Shown here one piece after another: positions 6,250-51,196 of a stretch of DNA of 64,000 nt (its first letter is position 1; each line of letters starts with the position of its first letter). The notes beneath the pieces were generated by a model. The model saw nothing but the letters and a program-made list of their open reading frames with translations. It made no database searches and had not been told where the DNA came from. Made by a program: the position numbers and the translations under genes. The DNA is from Bacilli bacterium. Its GTDB lineage: Bacteria; Bacillota_I; Bacilli_A; RFN20; CAG-288. The DNA is taken from contig JALCRV010000005.1 of NCBI GenBank assembly GCA_022652945.1, forward strand, positions 83,512 to 147,511, written 5' to 3'.

Positions 6250-6303
6250 AAGTCAAAACCCTCGCTTAATGGATATTATACAAAAAAGCGGGAGACTCGG
6301 AAT

Positions 6304-10940: not shown

Positions 10941-11334
10941 GGGGATGTAAAGGTCTCGACAGGTAGGGAGCAGCCTTGAGCGCAGCGGAGTGGCGGCCTA
11001 ACCGCTAAAGCACGATAAATGCCAAACCTATTTATCACAGATATGCGCCGGCTTTTGCCGCCGCTGCTTGCTAGTCTTAACTAGCGCAGCATAAGCGGGA
11101 GGTACACTCCCGAGCATAGTCTAGAGAGTACTCGCTATTCCATTCGGAGTTCCCTAGGCTAACCAAGAACGGATAGTCTCACCTCAAGATAGTCTGAGGC
11201 AGATGAAATTAAGCGCTATCGCCCCTGAGAACAATACGGCCGTTACGAAGCTCAGGGTATTATGACGGCCTAAGCTGTAGCGATCAGGACTTTGCCTTAT
11301 TTGGACAGGGGTTCAACTCCCCTCATCTCCACCA
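10941..11334 (+). ncRNA. ssrA: tmRNA (SsrA)
   Basis: The 5' end GGGGATGTAAAGGTCTCGACAGG resembles B. subtilis ssrA (GGGGACGTTACGGATTCGACAGG). The 3' end has a tRNA-like T-arm and acceptor, GGTTCAACTCCCCTCATCTCCACCA. An internal reading frame follows ATAAAT (GCC AAA ... GCT GCT TGC TAG TCT TAA), which aligns with the B. subtilis tag region and its double stop. A hairpin plus T-run terminator follows at 11345-11364. Confidence 0.9.
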
Positions 11335-39537: not shown

Positions 39538-39704
39538 GAAGGCTGATTTATCTATAAAAGCAGCTTCCGTCTTTTCCCTTCTCTTCTTGAAAAAGCTTTT
39601 ATAATTCAAGAAGCTTATTAAAAAAGTTTTGAATCAAAGAGTAGCATCTAAGGAATAAGCCCTTAAGTAATGGATTTTTTAGTTATAAACTTTTTTATAA
39701 CTTT

Positions 39705-39777
39705 TTAGCACTCTTCTATTGACAGTGCTAATTATTGATGTATAATACAGTTAGCACTTGAAGAATGAGAGTGCTAA
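39705..39777 (+). promoter_or_regulatory. SigA-type promoter flanked by two CIRCE-like HrcA operators upstream of hsp20
   Basis: CIRCE-1 is TTAGCACTC-N9-CAGTGCTAA (39705-39731). The -35 TTGACA (39719-39724) and -10 TATAAT (39741-39746) are 16 nt apart. CIRCE-2 is TTAGCACTT-N9-GAGTGCTAA (39751-39777). The CIRCE consensus is TTAGCACTC-N9-GAGTGCTAA. Confidence 0.75.
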
Positions 39778-39797
39778 AAACAAGGAGGATAAAACTT

Positions 39798-40244
39798 ATG
39801 TCTACTAATGAAAATCAGATCGCTAAAAAGAATGAAGGAAGAAACGAAGGAAGAAGCTTAGGGTTTTTCGATCCGCTATTTGATGCTTTCTTCCCTGAAG
39901 AGAGGAACTCTAACCATCTGATGAAAACCGATATCAAGGAAAATGATGGTGGTTATGAATTAGCAGTCGAGGTTCCGGGCTTGAAGAAAGATCAGGTCAG
40001 CTTAAAGTATTCTGATGGTTACCTGACAATCGCCGCTAAGGAGAATATCTCCGATGATCATACTTCCAAGAATGGTAAGTTTATCAGACGTGAGAGATAT
40101 CTCGGCTCTTACGAGAGAAGCTTCTATATCGGCGAGATTGACCAGAAAGATATCAAGGCCAAGATGGAAGACGGGATTTTAAAGGTGTCCTTCCCTAAAG
40201 AAAAGGAACATCTGCCTACGGAAAACAGCATCCAGATTCTTTAA
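39798..40244 (+). CDS. Hsp20/alpha-crystallin family small heat shock protein
   Basis: The alpha-crystallin domain is recognisable: DIKENDGGYELAVEVPGLKKDQVSLKYSDGYLTIAA...ERYLGSYERSFYIG...DGILKVSFPK. The start was placed at MSTNEN after AAGGAGG. Confidence 0.85.
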   Translation: MSTNENQIAKKNEGRNEGRSLGFFDPLFDAFFPEERNSNHLMKTDIKENDGGYELAVEVPGLKKDQVSLKYSDGYLTIAAKENISDDHTSKNGKFIRRERYLGSYERSFYIGEIDQKDIKAKMEDGILKVSFPKEKEHLPTENSIQIL

Positions 40245-40516
40245 AGGATCGCTGTCTATATATAGAAAGAGTCGCGGTGAGAAAACACCGCGCTCTTTTT
40301 TTATAGAGTTCAAATATCAATAACTTTTGCCTTTATATATATCAGAAATTATTGCTTTTGTTCCTTTTTAACATATAGTTTTGTCCCTATTTTTTCAACA
40401 AATATTTAAAATATTTAGCCAGTTTAAGGCATTTTATGTGTCTATCTTTCTTTATTGAAATAGGCATTTTTAATAATTAACAGCCGCCTCATAATTAAAC
40501 CAAGGAGGAAAAAAAC

Positions 40517-40963
40517 ATGTTTTCCAAGAATTATATCTATGCTCATACGATTAAGCCTCTTTACTGCAAGAAGATTCATGAAAAAGAAAATTATACCCTT
40601 CAGGATCTGAGGCAGATGCAGTACAATAAATGGAGCAGAGCCAAAGGCGTCTACTCCGGCAACTTCCTTCCTAAAGAGGAGAAGAAAGCCAGGCTCCTCA
40701 AGCAAGGATGGGTATATGAATTTCCGAAATATGCCCATACGGAGGGAGCGGACAAAAACATCGTTTACAAGTGTCTCCGCAACAACCAGTACGTCAGAGA
40801 ATGCCATGCAGAAAATCGCTTTCATTGGCATTGGTTGAATTGTTTTCTTGCAAAAGGCTTTACAGAGCATATGAGAGAGCTGAAGAAAAAACATTTGCCG
40901 AAATATCTTAATGAATATGGTGAGCCTTCCACCAACTGGAAAGATAACCATTTTTATAAATAA
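40517..40963 (+). CDS. Cassette gene A (copy 1): small basic Cys/His-containing protein of unknown function
   Basis: A 148-aa protein with a strong RBS (AAGGAGG). The first ~67 aa and the ~145 nt upstream are near-identical to copy 2 (A' at 43089). Conserved C-terminal residues are CLRNNQ, RFHWHW and N(E/D)YGE. Confidence 0.6.
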   Translation: MFSKNYIYAHTIKPLYCKKIHEKENYTLQDLRQMQYNKWSRAKGVYSGNFLPKEEKKARLLKQGWVYEFPKYAHTEGADKNIVYKCLRNNQYVRECHAENRFHWHWLNCFLAKGFTEHMRELKKKHLPKYLNEYGEPSTNWKDNHFYK

Positions 40964-40973
40964 AGGGGGGCAT

Positions 40974-41858
40974 ATGAAGCATCCGATAAACGAATATCCC
41001 GATTTCTTAACCGGAACCGAGGAAGATTCTATCGCAGATATAGATTATGATGCCGAAAAGCGCACTATCACAATTGTTATTCAGGTTGATTTAAACGAAT
41101 ATGACGGGCTTCCTCAAGAAAGCAATATTGTTTCATTGCTTGCCCCTAACGAAAAGGCACCATATCCCAATAATCTTTATGCAAAAATTATCTTTTATGA
41201 CGTTGATATTTTAAGCAGCCATTTTTTCGAAATACTGAATCACGAGAATGAAACAGGTTGGTACAATTGGATTTGGAGTGTTTCCTTTATAGACGGAGCT
41301 CCGATTTTCGATTTGGATCCTGAAGATTGGTCTAAAGATGAGCGCATAAAATTCAGAGCAAGTTCTTTTGAGTATTTATCATCAAAACAACCTGCGGAGA
41401 CCAAGCGCAAAGGTTTCAAAGTCAATAAAATACAATCGCAAGATTTAGAATGGCCCACTTTTTCGTTTACTTTATTTAAAGATTTTATGCCTGAGCCTAC
41501 TTGGAGCACTATCACAGCCTTTTCATATAATACGGACAAAGAAACAATTACCATGGTAGTAAGCCAGAACTGGAGATACATAAGCAAAAAAGCCGCTTCC
41601 GTTCTTGATAGGCCAGACAAAGAAGGCAGATGGGTGGAGGCTAAAATCAGATATTGCTTCCATCATGTAGTGATGTTGTCTAAAGAGAGCCAAAAGGTTT
41701 TTGAAGAATGGGAAAAAAGAGGATGGCAGATTGACATCTTCAGTTCAGAGTTTAAAAATGGAGTATATACATTCACCCCGAAGCCTATCATTTATGCTTT
41801 AAACAATCCGTCTATCTCTTTTACAGCCGAAACGTTCGAATATGGACTAGTATTCTAA
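40974..41858 (+). CDS. Cassette gene B (copy 1): protein of unknown function with an internal two-domain repeat
   Basis: About 294 aa from MKHPINEYPDF (RBS AAAGGGGGG). It is homologous to B' (43549-44409). Shared blocks are MKHPI.DYP.F, DYD..KRTIT and EAKIRYCFH.V.M.S..SQ.VF..WEK.GWQI, and both end FEYGLV. The two halves resemble each other (..KRTITIVIQ.. / ..KETITMVVSQ..). Confidence 0.55.
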   Translation: MKHPINEYPDFLTGTEEDSIADIDYDAEKRTITIVIQVDLNEYDGLPQESNIVSLLAPNEKAPYPNNLYAKIIFYDVDILSSHFFEILNHENETGWYNWIWSVSFIDGAPIFDLDPEDWSKDERIKFRASSFEYLSSKQPAETKRKGFKVNKIQSQDLEWPTFSFTLFKDFMPEPTWSTITAFSYNTDKETITMVVSQNWRYISKKAASVLDRPDKEGRWVEAKIRYCFHHVVMLSKESQKVFEEWEKRGWQIDIFSSEFKNGVYTFTPKPIIYALNNPSISFTAETFEYGLVF

Positions 41859-42000
41859 TTCTTATACATATCAATATAAAATCCCGCTCATTGTACTTAG
41901 CCTTTTTTCTAAGGAACTAAACAGTGACCAAGATTATAGGTACACATCCCAAAGGCCAAAAGAGAAGGACTTCCCCGCTCGTTAGACTAGGTGGCAACTT

Positions 42001-42132
42001 TTATTTCTTCTTTAGATTATCTTCCTTGCCAGTCATATTTTTTTTACGATAATAGTCCCAAATAGCAAACTGCTGCCTTCTTTTAGCTTCTTTGGTCATT
42101 CTGGACTTAGGCTGTTTTTTTCTCCCAAACAT
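42001..42132 (-). CDS. Small basic protein (43 aa), translationally coupled (TAATG) to the upstream 262-aa gene
   Basis: MFGRKKQPKSRMTKEAKRRQQFAIWDYYRKKNMTGKEDNLKKK. GGAGG lies 9 nt upstream of the ATG, and the ATG overlaps the TAA of the 42132-42920 ORF. Confidence 0.4.
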   Translation of the reverse strand: MFGRKKQPKSRMTKEAKRRQQFAIWDYYRKKNMTGKEDNLKKK

Positions 42133-42920
42133 TATTTTGACCTCCATTCTTCAGATTTATATTCAGCTTTAAGGTTGTATAGGTTGCACTCAATGAAATC
42201 ATCCGCCTCTTTGATTATTTCCTTGATAGATTCATTCTTTTCATCTTTTAGAACATAAGGCGCCTCAATATCATTGATGCTGAATATCGCTAAAGTGTCC
42301 TTCCCATCGGACAAAATACCAGCGATGATGTTATCTTGGACCGGTCCGTTAAGAGCTTTGCTAACCAGCGGGATCATTTCAACTTTGATTCCGTTTGCTC
42401 TAAAGCAATAAAGCCTTTGATTCTCAACCGCGAAATAAAAGTTCTTAAGTGATTTATAAAAAATAATCTGCTGTCTTTTATATTCTGGAAGGCGCGAATA
42501 CTCATTTAACATCGAGCGAAAACAACTAGAGACACTTGTGTCCATGATTCTGGCTTCATTCATAGCAATCTCGTCAAATACGGCCAGGTTCTCATTCAAG
42601 GGCCTTACGGAAAGTTGACCTGCAGTTTTATAATCTTCTTCATCATCGAAATAAACAGAGTCAAAAATTTCTTCCAAGTCTACCAGCATTTTTCGAAAAA
42701 GTTCACTATTAAGCCCCAACGCACTTTTTCTCTCTATCAGGTTTTCAATCTTCGCTCGTCTTTCTTTTCTAATATCTAACAGGGATGGAATGATACTGTT
42801 CAAAAGACCGTTTATATTTGGCCTGCCTTTTTTTAAATACTTTAAAGGAAAATACTTGCAGGCATCGTTATTAAGAACAGATAAGACTGTCTCACTTATT
42901 GTCACATTAATCTTGTCCAT
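42132..42920 (-). CDS. Hypothetical protein (262 aa) between the two cassette copies
   Basis: A clean ORF with no recognisable motifs. It is oriented opposite to the cassette genes. Confidence 0.45.
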   Translation of the reverse strand: MDKINVTISETVLSVLNNDACKYFPLKYLKKGRPNINGLLNSIIPSLLDIRKERRAKIENLIERKSALGLNSELFRKMLVDLEEIFDSVYFDDEEDYKTAGQLSVRPLNENLAVFDEIAMNEARIMDTSVSSCFRSMLNEYSRLPEYKRQQIIFYKSLKNFYFAVENQRLYCFRANGIKVEMIPLVSKALNGPVQDNIIAGILSDGKDTLAIFSINDIEAPYVLKDEKNESIKEIIKEADDFIECNLYNLKAEYKSEEWRSK

Positions 42921-43088
42921 CCATAAGGCTCCATTAAATTAATGGTATAGTTTTGTCCCTATTTTTTCAACAAATATTTAAAATATTTAGCCAATTTAAG
43001 TCGTTTTATGTGCCTATCATTCTTGATTTAAACAGTCATTTTTAATAATTAACAGCCGCCTCATAATTAAACCAAGGAGGAAAAAAAC

Positions 43089-43535
43089 ATGTTTTCCAAG
43101 AATTATATCTATGCTCATACGATTAAGCCCCTTTACTGCAAGAAGATCCACGAAAAAGAAAATTATACCCTTCAGGATCTGAGGCAGATGCAGTACAATA
43201 AATGGAGCAGGGCCAAAGGGATTTATTCGGGCAACTTCCTTCCTAAAGAGGAGAAGAAAGCCAAGCTCCTCAAGCAAGGATGGGTGTACTTAAACCCGGA
43301 GCATAATGACACGCCAAAGGCAAAATGCCACGCCGATTACAAATGCCTAAGAAACAACCAGCATATCAGATAATGCAATGCGGGAGGCCGCTTCCACTGG
43401 CATTGGTTCAACTTTTTTAAGCCTAGTGGTTTCATCGAATGGAGAAGACAATTCAGCGATAAGAGCAAAATTGAGTGTCTAAATGATTATGGAGAGGTTG
43501 AAACAGACCCTAAAAAGAATCATTTATATAGATAA
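43089..43535 (+). pseudogene. Cassette gene A' (copy 2) with a single in-frame TAA (nonsense) at 43371-43373
   Basis: The frame from 43089 runs 447 nt, the same length as gene A, to a TAA at 43533. One internal TAA sits where copy 1 has GAA (Glu): ...CLRNNQHIR*CNAGGRFHWHWFN... versus ...CLRNNQYVRECHAENRFHWHWLN... Homology to A continues after the stop (RFHWHW, NDYGE, KNHLY). Confidence 0.6.
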
Positions 43536-43548
43536 AGGAGACAAAATA

Positions 43549-44409
43549 ATGAAACATCCAATTTGCGATTATCCTAAGTTCATGCCGGGAAGTGGCGATG
43601 ATGATCTTATGGATTTCGATTATGATGAGAAGAAAAGAACAATTACAATGTTGCTTTCCATAGATACTATTTTCTTGAATCCAGACATTAAAAAAGCCTT
43701 AGGATCTAAGATCTCCATCACGGGAGATACTTATGTGTTAATTACCTTCTACGATATTGATATCGTCAGCAGGGATTTCAAAAAGATCATCGGATACCTT
43801 GATAAAATCAAATACTTTGTCTTTTTCGATTCGGTTGGCTTTTCCGATGGTTGCCCATCATTTGATATTGATTTCCAAGGCCTTGACTGGGACGGGCCGA
43901 TGATCATCAGATTTCATGCTTCATCATTTGAATATAAGAAATCAAAAAGACACAAATTGATTAAGCACTTTGATTTCAGCAAGCTCCCTCATGATAAAGA
44001 GCCGCTTGTCATCAAGACATCTGATATTGCTGACTACAAACCTAGCGGGCCCGCCTGCTATTTGAATGCGTTCAGTTTTAATGAGCGAAAGAAGACAATG
44101 ACCATGGTGATCAATTCCACATGGCACGACTTGTCCGAAAAAGCATTTTCGGCTCTTGGACGTCCTGAAATGAAAGGACGTTATATAGAAGCCAAAATCA
44201 GGTACTGCTTCCACAATGTGGAAATGACCAGCCCTAACAGCCAAGAGGTTTTCGATGCATGGGAAAAGGTTGGCTGGCAGATATGCTATTACAATATTTT
44301 GATTGAGAACGGGCAATTGACTTTGGTCTTCCCTAATCCCATTGATGAACAAAAAGTGGATGAGATTAGTTTCAAGTCAGACGTCTTTGAATACGGGCTT
44401 GTTGAATAA
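43549..44409 (+). CDS. Cassette gene B' (copy 2), a paralog of B
   Basis: About 286 aa from MKHPICDYPKF (RBS AAAGGAGA). It is roughly 40% identical to B by eye, with the same conserved blocks and C-terminal FEYGLVE. Confidence 0.55.
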   Translation: MKHPICDYPKFMPGSGDDDLMDFDYDEKKRTITMLLSIDTIFLNPDIKKALGSKISITGDTYVLITFYDIDIVSRDFKKIIGYLDKIKYFVFFDSVGFSDGCPSFDIDFQGLDWDGPMIIRFHASSFEYKKSKRHKLIKHFDFSKLPHDKEPLVIKTSDIADYKPSGPACYLNAFSFNERKKTMTMVINSTWHDLSEKAFSALGRPEMKGRYIEAKIRYCFHNVEMTSPNSQEVFDAWEKVGWQICYYNILIENGQLTLVFPNPIDEQKVDEISFKSDVFEYGLVE

Positions 44410-44783
44410 CTTTCTTAGCCAACATATGGGTCATCAATAAAGCATAAGATATGATTTTTTGATGGAATAATTCATTAAAAAGCAAAAGTATCTTTAAAAT
44501 GCTCAATAGTGTCCTCTCACTGATAATCACATTTGTCTTCATATATGTTTTGATGTAATTGTGGTTTATCTTTGGCTTTTTCAAAAACCAATTTAATATC
44601 AGTAAAGATTGAATGTAGATATTACACATTTATCTAAAATCTAACTCGCACGGTTTCTCATCTTAGGTATACTTTTATAGCAAAAAAACTTTTCGTCATC
44701 CAAAGTCTGTAACAGAAAAAGTTGTTGTTTTCTTAGGCCTTAATTGATCAATGAAGTTTTCGAATCTATTTTAAAAGAGTCTT

Positions 44784-46963: not shown

Positions 46964-47194
46964 AATGATAACCCCCTTCGTTATTGAATAAATTAATTAT
47001 ACGTTATATGAACTATGTTACCACTTGCTTAAGACAGAAGAAAACGCTTACTTAGGTAAAAAAGGAATTTTGTTATGTGGCAAACTAAAAGCAAAATAAT
47101 TTCAGCTTCCAACCGAAGCGACAATATTACCTATGCTTCGCCGGCCTTAATTTATCACCCGACAAGGGATATTTTTAAGTGCTCTGGTGGATTC

Positions 47195-47285
47195 CGTTTA
47201 AGTGTTTGGGTCAATTTCGTTTAAGTGTTTGGGTCGAATATTTTTAAGTGTTTGGGTCAATTCCGTTTAAGTGTTTGGGTGAAGT
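47195..47285. repeat. Four iteron-like direct repeats (~23-bp period) of CGTTTAAGTGTTTGGGTCAAT
   Basis: cgtttaagtgtttgggtcaat (47195), cgtttaagtgtttgggtcgaat (47219), tttttaagtgtttgggtcaat (47242), cgtttaagtgtttgggtgaag (47265), plus a partial TTTTAAGTGC at 47173. They sit in a 1.1-kb non-coding gap between hpt and the UmuC-like gene. Confidence 0.8.
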
Positions 47286-48044
47286 TCCTATGAGTTTAGG
47301 AGCCTGAAGCAGTCTACAAAGATTCTTTTCGACAATAAATCACCACTTCTCTTTATCAAGGAAAGTTTTAAAGATAGCAAGCCTAAAAGTTTCAATTAAT
47401 TTATGTTTATGGGACTAAAGAGCTCGCAGGTAAATGATTCCAGCGGCAAAAGAAAAAATCGCGCCTTAGACATACCGAATATGAGCCGGCCGTTTTAATC
47501 AATTGAGTTGCCTAGCCCTATATAGAAATGCAATCAGTATCTTTCAGATAAATTTCATATAGTACCCTTCAGATTTTGATTTTCGTCGTTAAACGTCCAA
47601 GATGTTTCCCACCAATTTTATGCCATCTTCAAAATTCAAAATCTCTGATACAAAAACCGCTCAGTCCAGACTCATTCATGTTTTCAAATAGTCCGTTTTC
47701 AATGAGCACAGTTGAGCTTTTCAGCGCAAATAGAAAGTGTTTTAGGTACAACAATCAGGTCTCTTTCTAAGTACTTCATTCATTTACATCATCGCTTTCT
47801 TTATATCGTTGTTTTTTTCATTCTTTTTCATCATCAATCAAGTTCTAAAATTTTTTAAACAAATGTCAAAATCCAAAATCCGATTACTAATTAATAACTA
47901 CCATCCTTTCATTTGAGCCTCTTTAAAAGAGACAACTTTCCCAACCTTAAAAGCACCTTGTCAGGGTAAATATTTACATCGGATTTACATCCCCAAAATG
48001 CCCTTCCGGCTTGTTATAATCTTCACTACAAAGAGGACGGGCAG

Positions 48045-49964: not shown

Positions 49965-50753
49965 TTAACGTTCTTCGAGGATCTGCTTTTTCTTTTTCTC
50001 GAATTCTTCCTGGGTGATTACACCACGATCCAACAGGTCTTTATAAGATTCAATGGCTTTGGCTTTCCTTAATTCCTCTTCCGGATCGGAAGGTTTATTC
50101 CCGCTCTGAGGGATGAAGACAGAGTTATTGATCTCGATTCCTCTAGTCAGAAGAAGAATCAGGACCGCGAAGATAACCTGGGTCAAAAGATTGCCGATAT
50201 ATAAAACAATCTGCGCATTATCGTTCATAACCCCGGTCATCATCGAAAGGGCTTGGATGATCACGGCTAAGGAAGAAGAGACTAAAAGAAGGATACCGGA
50301 GATTTTGATGATTCTTAGGATATCCGCAGTATTCTTCCCGCAGATAAAAATGATTGAACTGATGACTAAGACAGCGATGAAAAGGAAACTGAAGGCGGAA
50401 AGGACCCAGGAGATAACTAAGAGCACTGAGTCGAGAGAGTTAACGACGCCGGCAAAGTTCGTATCAGCAATTTGTGCGTTTTTCGAGGAAAGGGTCAAAA
50501 CGGAGAAAATCGCAAAGAAATACGAAATCAGATTCATGACAGTCGGAATCCGCGGATCTTTAAATTCCACTTTATCAGCGATGATAAGAAGCACCATAAT
50601 CGCCAAGGACAAAGAAGACGAATAGATGGTAAGGCGAGTATGGTTAACTGAAGAGTAGATGGCGGCGGAGATTATGACAAAAATCAGCTGGATAACGAAA
50701 GCCAGAATAGCAACATAAAAATACTTTGAATCTTTTTTAAAAGCTATTTTCAT
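49965..50753 (-). CDS. Multi-pass membrane protein with a C-terminal SHOCT domain
   Basis: About 6 hydrophobic helices are followed by the C-terminus ESYKDLLDRGVITQEEFEKKKKQIL (SHOCT signature: L.kLk.LkD.GvIT.EEFe.kK..LL). Confidence 0.65.
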   Translation of the reverse strand: MKIAFKKDSKYFYVAILAFVIQLIFVIISAAIYSSVNHTRLTIYSSSLSLAIMVLLIIADKVEFKDPRIPTVMNLISYFFAIFSVLTLSSKNAQIADTNFAGVVNSLDSVLLVISWVLSAFSFLFIAVLVISSIIFICGKNTADILRIIKISGILLLVSSSLAVIIQALSMMTGVMNDNAQIVLYIGNLLTQVIFAVLILLLTRGIEINNSVFIPQSGNKPSDPEEELRKAKAIESYKDLLDRGVITQEEFEKKKKQILEER

Positions 50754-50773
50754 CTGTAACTGCTTCCTTCTGA

Positions 50774-51196
50774 TTAAAGACCGAGCAACTTCTTCTTTTT
50801 CGCTTCGTATTCTTCCTGGGTGATAACACCTTTATCAAGAAGATCCTTATATTCCTTTAAGGCCTGAGCGGTGCTCTCTTCGGTGGCAACCTGGGAAGCT
50901 TTGGACGGAGTCGTATTAACGACGCTATCGGTATCCCAGTTGGTGATCGGCAGCCCATCGGAGTCTTTCGCTCCGCCGGTGATAATCATGATCAAGTCAA
51001 TCAAAGCACCGATGCCGAATAAGCCGAAGGTGAAGATATAAAGGACCCCGAGTCCGATCTTTCCTTCGTAGAACTTATGGACACCAATCTCCCCTAAGAA
51101 GAGACAGAGGAGCAAATCGACTAAGCGCGACTTAGGAGAAATTGTCGCCTTTCCCGGCATCGGATAGACTTCCTGCATTTCATCCATAATCATCAC
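50774..51196 (-). CDS. TM2-domain protein with a C-terminal SHOCT domain
   Basis: The TM2 motif is present (LGEIGVHKFYEGKIGLGVLYIFTFGLFGIGALIDLIMII), followed by LKEYKDLLDKGVITQEEYEAKKKKLL (SHOCT). Confidence 0.7.
   Translation of the reverse strand: MMIMDEMQEVYPMPGKATISPKSRLVDLLLCLFLGEIGVHKFYEGKIGLGVLYIFTFGLFGIGALIDLIMIITGGAKDSDGLPITNWDTDSVVNTTPSKASQVATEESTAQALKEYKDLLDKGVITQEEYEAKKKKLLGL

Follow-up and report, generated by a model that had tools for sequence, protein, structure and literature searches.

Among the described toxins, the closest counterpart of the proteins analyzed here is PT7, an extremely toxic, Mg-dependent DNase fused to LXG domains. Its active site is bound by an immunity protein whose binding face is acidic (bioRxiv 10.1101/2021.10.19.465003); rRNase activity of PT7 has also been found in later work (10.64898/2026.07.31.742022). 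In terms of gene architecture, the locus resembles the contact-dependent inhibition (CDI; cdiA-CT/cdiI) and Rhs systems, in which a conserved 5′ recombination handle is followed by a variable 3′ part with a matching downstream partner. Here, we examine a 64,000-nucleotide (nt) stretch of the genome of a Bacilli bacterium (hereinafter, the window; GenBank assembly GCA_022652945.1, contig JALCRV010000005.1, positions 83,512 to 147,511, forward strand), which contains two cassettes, each consisting of a gene for a small, basic, toxin-like protein (A or, in the second copy, A′) and a gene for an acidic partner (B or B′). The A′ gene is interrupted by a premature TAA codon, apparently, a derived single-base nonsense mutation that is very recent or else an error of the consensus sequence. 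All coordinates given without a locus number are those of the window.

The A gene (40517–40963, plus strand) encodes an intact, basic protein of 148 amino acids (aa; pI 9.6), a putative nuclease-type toxin. Its second copy, A′ (43089–43535, plus strand), is of the same length, 447 nt including the final stop codon, and contains an in-frame TAA at codon 95 (43371–43373). When the DNA of the two cassettes is aligned, the copy-1 codon opposite codon 95 of A′ is GAA (AGAGAATGC versus AGATAATGC), so that a single G-to-T change transforms Glu95 into a stop codon in cassette 2. When translated past the TAA, A′ consists of 148 codons, 53 of which follow the stop in the same frame, and terminates exactly where copy 1 does. 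This 53-codon post-stop segment is 47% identical to copy 1 (E-value 1e-15) and 85% identical to an intact allele from another sample (E-value 7e-34); this homology, which is far above chance, takes in the RFHWHW, NDYGE, and KNHLY motifs. The initial annotation of this locus, made from the DNA alone, had described exactly this state of A′, that is, a TAA where copy 1 has Glu, the preserved frame, and the post-stop homology, along with an intact B′, and all these observations are confirmed. B′ (43549–44409, plus strand) is a complete open reading frame (ORF) that encodes the acidic partner of A′ (286 aa) and has a ribosome-binding site of its own, AGGAGA. The A′ product annotated by NCBI is only 94 aa long (MCI2068796.1, in the series MCI2068793–MCI2068798 of this genome, locus tags LKJ88_04380–LKJ88_04400). 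It lacks H103, H105, W106, and H145, all located after codon 95, of which H105, W106, and H145 are invariant and H103 is near-invariant in the family; with these residues, it loses the strand bearing the invariant H-x-H-W motif as well as the C-terminal His, likewise invariant. The 94-aa product is, almost certainly, inactive.

Comparison with related alleles indicates the direction of the change. The 90%-identity cluster to which the 94-aa protein belongs also includes four proteins of the full length of 148 aa, which come from other metagenomes and uniformly have Glu95 (...IRECNAGGRFHWHW...). We further compared, as DNA, nine related alleles, all from other metagenomes (both cassettes of the locus denoted L001, as well as L004 and L031–L036): codon 95 is GAA in all nine, and intact 148-aa proteins are encoded. 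Because the nine alleles uniformly carry GAA, the TAA is a derived, single-base nonsense mutation rather than the ancestral state. The window A′ differs from the intact alleles at about 11% of the nucleotides (dS about 0.45–0.84). The ratios of nonsynonymous to synonymous substitution rates (dN/dS, Nei-Gojobori method) between A′ and the four closest intact alleles are 0.05–0.07 before the stop and 0.12–0.14 after it, compared to 0.14 after the stop between more diverged pairs of intact alleles, a measure that has little power over 53 codons. Of the changes private to the window A′, about 7 nonsynonymous and 10 synonymous ones precede the stop, and about 5 of each kind follow it, a shift that is not significant; one of the post-stop changes is Y130C, at a position where every other allele compared keeps Tyr. 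Thus, the post-stop codons seem to have evolved under purifying selection for essentially their whole history, and since their dN/dS equals that among intact alleles, the nonsense mutation is either very recent or not real, that is, a consensus error. The comparison of GAA and TAA across alleles and the post-stop dN/dS had been suggested as checks at the outset; the stop proved to be derived, and no relaxed constraint was seen. A very recent mutation had been listed only as an alternative; its recency holds up, and it is best regarded as the state of the locus itself.

A similar picture emerges for B′, which, compared to the partners of intact A′ alleles, shows 84–85% aa identity and a dN/dS of 0.16–0.20, indicating purifying selection. 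However, the mutation in A′ is too recent for decay of B′ to have occurred, so that the intact state of B′ is uninformative: it is expected under any model and says little about the current usefulness of this gene. The initial interpretation, namely, an orphan immunity gene left behind after the loss of the toxin, accordingly, divides in two: the toxin/immunity part is favored by the fold, charge, and locus comparisons presented below, whereas the retention of B′ as an orphan finds no support, given that with such a young mutation, an intact B′ is expected anyway.

What A might be is indicated by its family. A word-based homologue search returned two clusters for A and, for B, only B itself; an exhaustive profile search yielded 30 representatives of the A family, nearly all of 90–210 aa. 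Scans of A, A′, B, B′, the two additional genes of the locus, C and D (see below), and their homologues against Pfam, NCBIfam, PADLOC, and PHROGs produced nothing significant, and no relatives of A were found in viral contigs, providing no evidence of phage origin. One match, P0025 (1647 aa, with 20 matched stretches), was dropped from the family as translated repeat DNA. The residues K13, P14, R32, Q33, W39, Y46, G48, P52, L60, G64, Q91, H105, W106, and H145 are invariant. A zinc finger, suggested by the Cys/His pattern of the window A, was rejected, C17, C86, and C96 not being conserved in the family. The AlphaFold2 model of A (pLDDT 83, pTM 0.77; an earlier model built from a 3-sequence alignment, with pLDDT 41, was discarded) matches the PT7 toxin fold (PDB 8owu, chain C) with moderate strength, at 16% sequence identity. 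The proteins of the A family have a median pI of 9.7, compared to 4.7 for the downstream partners.

Wherever the retrieved locus extends far enough, A is followed by a partner gene of 120–290 aa, either immediately adjacent to it or overlapping it. In the window, B (40974–41858, plus strand; 294 aa, pI 4.8), which might serve as an immunity protein or antitoxin, is 40% identical to B′ (E-value 1e-59). The N-terminal and C-terminal halves of B are themselves related (hhalign probability 97.5%, E-value 5.6e-12), so that B and B′ each consist of a tandemly duplicated domain of about 145 aa. For one of the partners, a match to Imm50 was disregarded as falling below the threshold (E-value 0.06). 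In L001 (2290–3678), an intact A is followed by a 146-aa partner that consists of the N-terminal domain alone and then by a 109-aa ORF, in which the start of C is fused to the end of D, a deletion scar. The half-length partner in L001 suggests that a single B domain might be sufficient.

The two cassettes share a conserved 5′ block, a 300-nt direct repeat with 94% identity (40374–40673 and 42946–43245, both plus strand), which in cassette 1 covers the sequence upstream of A together with the initial 157 nt of the gene. The two A copies in the window are 92–97% identical at the nucleotide level over the first 200 nt, but only 54–59% identical beyond (about 55–59% from about codon 67 on). Given this near-identity of the promoter region and the first 66 or so codons, followed by divergence, the cassettes constitute a single polymorphic toxin/immunity-like system with two specificities. 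Within one genome, the copies are 97–98% identical over their first 100 nt, versus 87–89% between genomes; the 5′ blocks are homogenized within genomes by concerted evolution, as would be expected of a recombination handle.

The loci of A homologues that we retrieved, 1 from a genome and 27 from metagenomes, plus the contigs of close alleles, show that such cassettes are rearranged and inactivated elsewhere as well. Tandem cassettes like those in the window are present in L001, L007, and L010. The most telling case is a clade from the human gut (L009 and its relatives), where downstream of the A-partner pair there are a start-less 3′ fragment from another type of A gene and a second partner. 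The start-less fragment and its 158-aa partner are located at about 6990–7100 in L009, with equivalents in L011–L016, L019, and L020; in L013, the orphan partner is split into two ORFs. In L022 (5983–6948), a full-length A combines the common 5′ part with the orphan-type 3′ part and is directly followed by the same second partner, at 98% nucleotide identity; the A proteins of L009 and L022 coincide up to about residue 56 and differ from there on. By analogy, this layout of the gut clade corresponds to the orphan toxin-tip/immunity arrangement of CDI and Rhs loci. Measured against the definition of polymorphic toxins (sensu Zhang, Aravind et al. 2012), a conserved N-terminal part combined with a variable C-terminal part is seen in the window copies and in L009/L022; a downstream partner that co-varies with the tip is also present (B and B′ are 40% identical and the A tips 47% identical), with a putative immunity function; orphan tip and immunity cassettes are found in the gut clade and not in the window itself; and among the domains of A and the 20 window ORFs scanned, there is neither a trafficking domain nor a secretion linkage.

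Loss of A is recurrent. In L027 (Ga0172377_10002333, 6295–6300), which encodes a distant A homologue, TGG is changed to TGA at the invariant Trp of the H-x-H-W motif, and the rest of the frame as well as the partner are intact. Use of genetic code 4 was rejected as the explanation of this TGA: the other Trp codons are TGG, and the long ORFs are the same under both codes. Accordingly, L027 is a second, independent point-nonsense inactivation of A. L030 (LAHS01000104, 5505–6666) retains a 50-aa stump of A and a 99-aa stump of C together with an intact 177-aa partner, and in L004 (LAHS01000265, 5725–7293), C is deleted, A lacks the first ten codons, and B is no longer in one frame. The decayed cassettes of L004 and L030 come from one metagenome assembly. 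The TAA in the window exemplifies the rapid turnover that is general among these cassettes. The match to the PT7 fold, the pairing of basic and acidic proteins, the orphan modules of 3′ fragments and partners, and the other loci with a dead A and a live partner together argue well for the toxin/immunity interpretation, under which A is presumably a toxin, probably a nuclease, and B presumably neutralizes it by binding.

Together, these observations point, with moderate confidence on our part, to the following scenario. The 4.5-kb accessory island carries two cassettes, each with a small, basic, toxin-like A followed by an acidic B, its presumed cognate neutralizer, and between them, on the other strand, C and the tiny basic D. 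A would be a small nuclease-type toxin, which B would bind and block, and the shared 5′ block would permit exchange of tips and partners. A′ would have just been inactivated by a point nonsense mutation, with B′ intact because no time has passed. Should A-type proteins be delivered from cell to cell, B′ would also have a use as orphan immunity.

Several observations weigh against this scenario. The assignment of A as a toxin comes from a single match, of moderate strength, of a predicted structure. The A-family profile retrieved no chain among the PDB sequences at E-values up to 10, 8owu_C included, so that there is no membership in PT7 at the sequence level, and a Foldseek search of PDB retrieved nothing. 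A Foldseek search of viral structures was likewise without a match. No secretion or trafficking domain was detected in A with Pfam or NCBIfam, and the N-terminal part is modeled within the same globule as the rest of the protein; no secretion system was found among the 20 largest or nearest window ORFs scanned, which are housekeeping genes. Homology between the partners of different clades could not be demonstrated with hhalign. No 94-aa product is on record in other assemblies; the TAA allele is private to this one and might therefore be a consensus error or a minority variant. Over so few codons, dN/dS has little power.

The strongest competing explanation, which we regard as possible although clearly less likely, is that A and B form an intracellular toxin-antitoxin (TA) or abortive-infection module with a regulator switch rather than a delivered weapon, in which case B′ would be useless and doomed to decay. 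Consistent with an intracellular role, A has no signal peptide or trafficking domain, there are no secretion genes nearby, YoeB/YefM are among the neighbors of L001, and A-B pairs lie beside candidate stress-responsive regulators. In the window, the candidate is C (42132–42920, minus strand; 262 aa), which is divergent from A′ and belongs to an unannotated family. It is accompanied by D (42001–42147, minus strand), a very basic (pI 10.5) 48-aa protein encoded downstream of C and overlapping it, which is conserved in L001, L002, L003, L004, L006, and L023. Both C and D are found with A-B in the window clade, in L005/L006, L007, L023, and in L003, a Christensenellaceae metagenome-assembled genome (MAG); only a C remnant is present in L030. 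The window C is 25% identical (E-value 2e-10) to the gene divergent from A in L003. None of the 69 clusters of C homologues has a Pfam domain or a name, and no PDB relatives of the family were found by sequence profile. The family consensus contains the motif HWYLLYF, noticed by eye, and the longer C of L007, alone among the C proteins, has a sub-threshold match to WCX (E-value 2.9e-4). That C is a WYL-type regulator is a reasonable guess but no more than that. In the gut clade, the place of C is taken by an XRE-type HTH_3 protein and a Peptidase_M78 protein encoded downstream of A-B.

Against the intracellular module, the WYL assignment of C is weak, with no match to Pfam WYL (PF13280) or a helix-turn-helix (HTH) domain in the C proteins scanned; no PADLOC model matches; and intact orphan partners behind a dead or start-less A persist across many independent gut samples, a persistence better accounted for if immunity to foreign toxins confers a benefit. 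This persistence of orphan partners argues for delivery to neighbors, whereas the lack of a trafficking domain or secretion genes, together with the link to candidate regulators, argues for action inside the producer; we consider these two modes of action of A about equally probable.

Less plausible, and in our view unlikely, is that A and B co-evolve in some other capacity, for example, as a nucleic-acid-binding protein with its partner, with the nonsense mutation marking the loss of a redundant paralogue. The orphan modules of 3′ fragments and partners, the tandem cassettes of differing specificity, the hypervariable partners, the opposite charges, and the repeated inactivation of A alone all speak against such a pair, being the signature of antagonistic toxin/immunity pairs.

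A further possibility, somewhat more doubtful still, concerns the mutation itself: the TAA might be absent from the organism, being a substitution error or a minority variant in the consensus, with A′ really intact. The source record is a MAG, the 94-aa product is found in no other assembly, and the post-stop codons look fully constrained, exactly as an error predicts. However, isolated substitution errors in non-repetitive sequence are rare among assemblers; the site lies outside the 300-nt repeat, and mis-assembly across the copies would bring in GAA along with many copy-1 differences; and the independent point nonsense mutation in L027 indicates that such mutations occur in the A family. 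The stop is therefore, most likely, a real mutation. Finally, programmed readthrough or recoding of the TAA with continued production of full-length A′, which had been raised as an alternative in view of the open and well-conserved post-stop frame, can be dismissed as highly improbable: a programmed stop should be conserved, but this one is conserved in no homologue, with GAA in copy 1 and the nine related alleles; the TAA is followed by T, and TAA-T is the strongest, most efficient stop context in bacterial termination; TAA also ends A, B, A′, and B′, being a normal stop codon in this organism; and restart is ruled out as well, there being no in-frame ATG, GTG, or TTG after the TAA in the A′ frame.

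The accessory island spans 40270–44781 and includes both cassettes. Synteny with L037 and L038, as traced by blastn against the window, ends at 40269 and restarts at 44782. In L037–L040, the gene maps place hsp20 directly beside a family-8 glycosyltransferase (GT8) gene, and the island replaces the unrelated spacer of about 177 nt between these two genes; the related genomes are 85–90% identical to the window in the flanks. A test for a second insertion site, using tblastn and blastn, detected neither A, B, C, or D nor any DNA similarity to L002 in the L037–L040 loci. The island is accessory and is absent from the related genomes. A scan of the island for promoters and terminators gave no signal above the shuffled expectation. 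About 70 nt upstream of A, there is a palindrome, TGCCTA-N16-TAGGCA, which is kept in all window-clade loci (including L001, L002, L031, and L034) and is degenerate in the window itself (40438–40467 and 43010–43039), where copy 1 reads GTCTAT...ATAGGC and copy 2 has a mutated right half. Located in the C-A intergenic region, this palindrome is a candidate operator.

Several other features of the window deserve mention. Just upstream of the hsp20 gene (39765–40244), there are two copies of an inverted repeat, TTAGCAC(T/C)-N9-(G/C)AGTGCTAA (39702–39780), which match the consensus of the CIRCE heat-shock operator. The spacer between the hprt-like and dinB-like (IMS) genes contains 4.2 tandem copies of a 23-nt unit (ATTCCGTTTAAGTGTTTGGGTCA; 47191–47288); in L037 and L038, this spacer harbors a 1.6-kb segment with an AAA_14/DUF4143 ATPase gene, compared to about 124 nt in the window. 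The tmRNA gene (10941–11334; Rfam RF00023, 96 bits) is the sole Rfam match at the gathering score in the window. Two adjacent genes on the minus strand (49965–51196) encode proteins with SHOCT C-terminal domains and share, at their 3′ ends, a 70-nt repeat that is 73% identical (49976–50045 and 50782–50851).

As such, the nonsense event is ordinary decay that leaves a routine young pseudogene. The value of the locus lies in the family to which it led: about 30 representative A clusters and 69 C clusters lack annotation in Pfam, NCBIfam, PADLOC, and PHROGs, and the A family shows the full genomic signature of toxin/immunity warfare, with swappable tips, orphan modules, tandem cassettes, and recurrent death of the toxin. 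If A is indeed a PT7-like nuclease, the PT7 fold would reach beyond the LXG toxins of type VII secretion (T7SS) to free-standing genes, and how, or whether, so small and leaderless a toxin is delivered would become the question. The natural TAA allele and the TGA allele of L027 are ready-made loss-of-function controls. More tentatively, A to D might constitute an undescribed family of free-standing nuclease toxins of the PT7 fold that lack a trafficking domain and come with a hypervariable acidic neutralizer and a dedicated regulator, either C, perhaps WYL-like, or the pair of an XRE protein and an ImmA-type peptidase. This would be a new regulated TA or abortive-infection module of gut and other host-associated Firmicutes that diversifies by tip swapping, like secreted polymorphic toxins, and in which the costly toxin is repeatedly killed by point nonsense mutations.

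Comparison with known systems brings out both the likeness and the distance. PT7(Bc) and its immunity protein PIM7(Bc) from Bacillus cereus (PDB 8owu; Nachmias et al., bioRxiv 10.1101/2021.10.19.465003) share with the window pair no relationship at the sequence level, A being only 16% identical to the toxin. Furthermore, PT7 is the C-terminal tip of LXG proteins that are exported via the type VII route, whereas A is a free-standing protein of about 150 aa with a different, family-specific N-terminal half. With CDI and Rhs loci, the similarity extends to the start-less 3′ fragments with partners downstream of the full gene, including the orphan tip that replaced the resident tip in L022; however, the toxins of those systems are very large filaments or shells that are secreted and have a defined machinery for delivery, whereas the A gene is 447 nt long and has no known delivery system. 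The type VII immunity arrays of Firmicutes (EsaG, TsaI; PMC9484751) are likewise strain-variable, recombine between paralogues, and keep immunity genes without a working toxin, but the partners in the window each keep their own toxin-like gene and promoter, and no T7SS genes were seen in the window.

Two further comparisons concern regulation and intracellular action. Like the toxin-first type II TA modules with the higBA or hicAB layout, A-B combines a small basic toxin gene with a close neutralizer gene in an accessory island. However, beyond the adjacency of the genes, neither A nor B belongs to a TA family or contains a recognizable DNA-binding domain, B, a tandem duplication, exceeds the toxin in size, and orphan 3′ fragments are atypical of TA loci. 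C resembles the WYL regulators BrxR and CapW in its divergent transcription, the WYL-like motif, and the WCX-like tail of one homologue, but this resemblance consists of a motif seen by eye and one sub-threshold match, with no Pfam WYL or HTH domain. The HTH_3 and Peptidase_M78 pair beside A-B in the gut clade, in turn, is reminiscent of CapH/CapP, the XRE HTH protein and ImmA/IrrE-type peptidase of defense operons. Thus, the A-B family is undescribed and yet fits a known kind of system.
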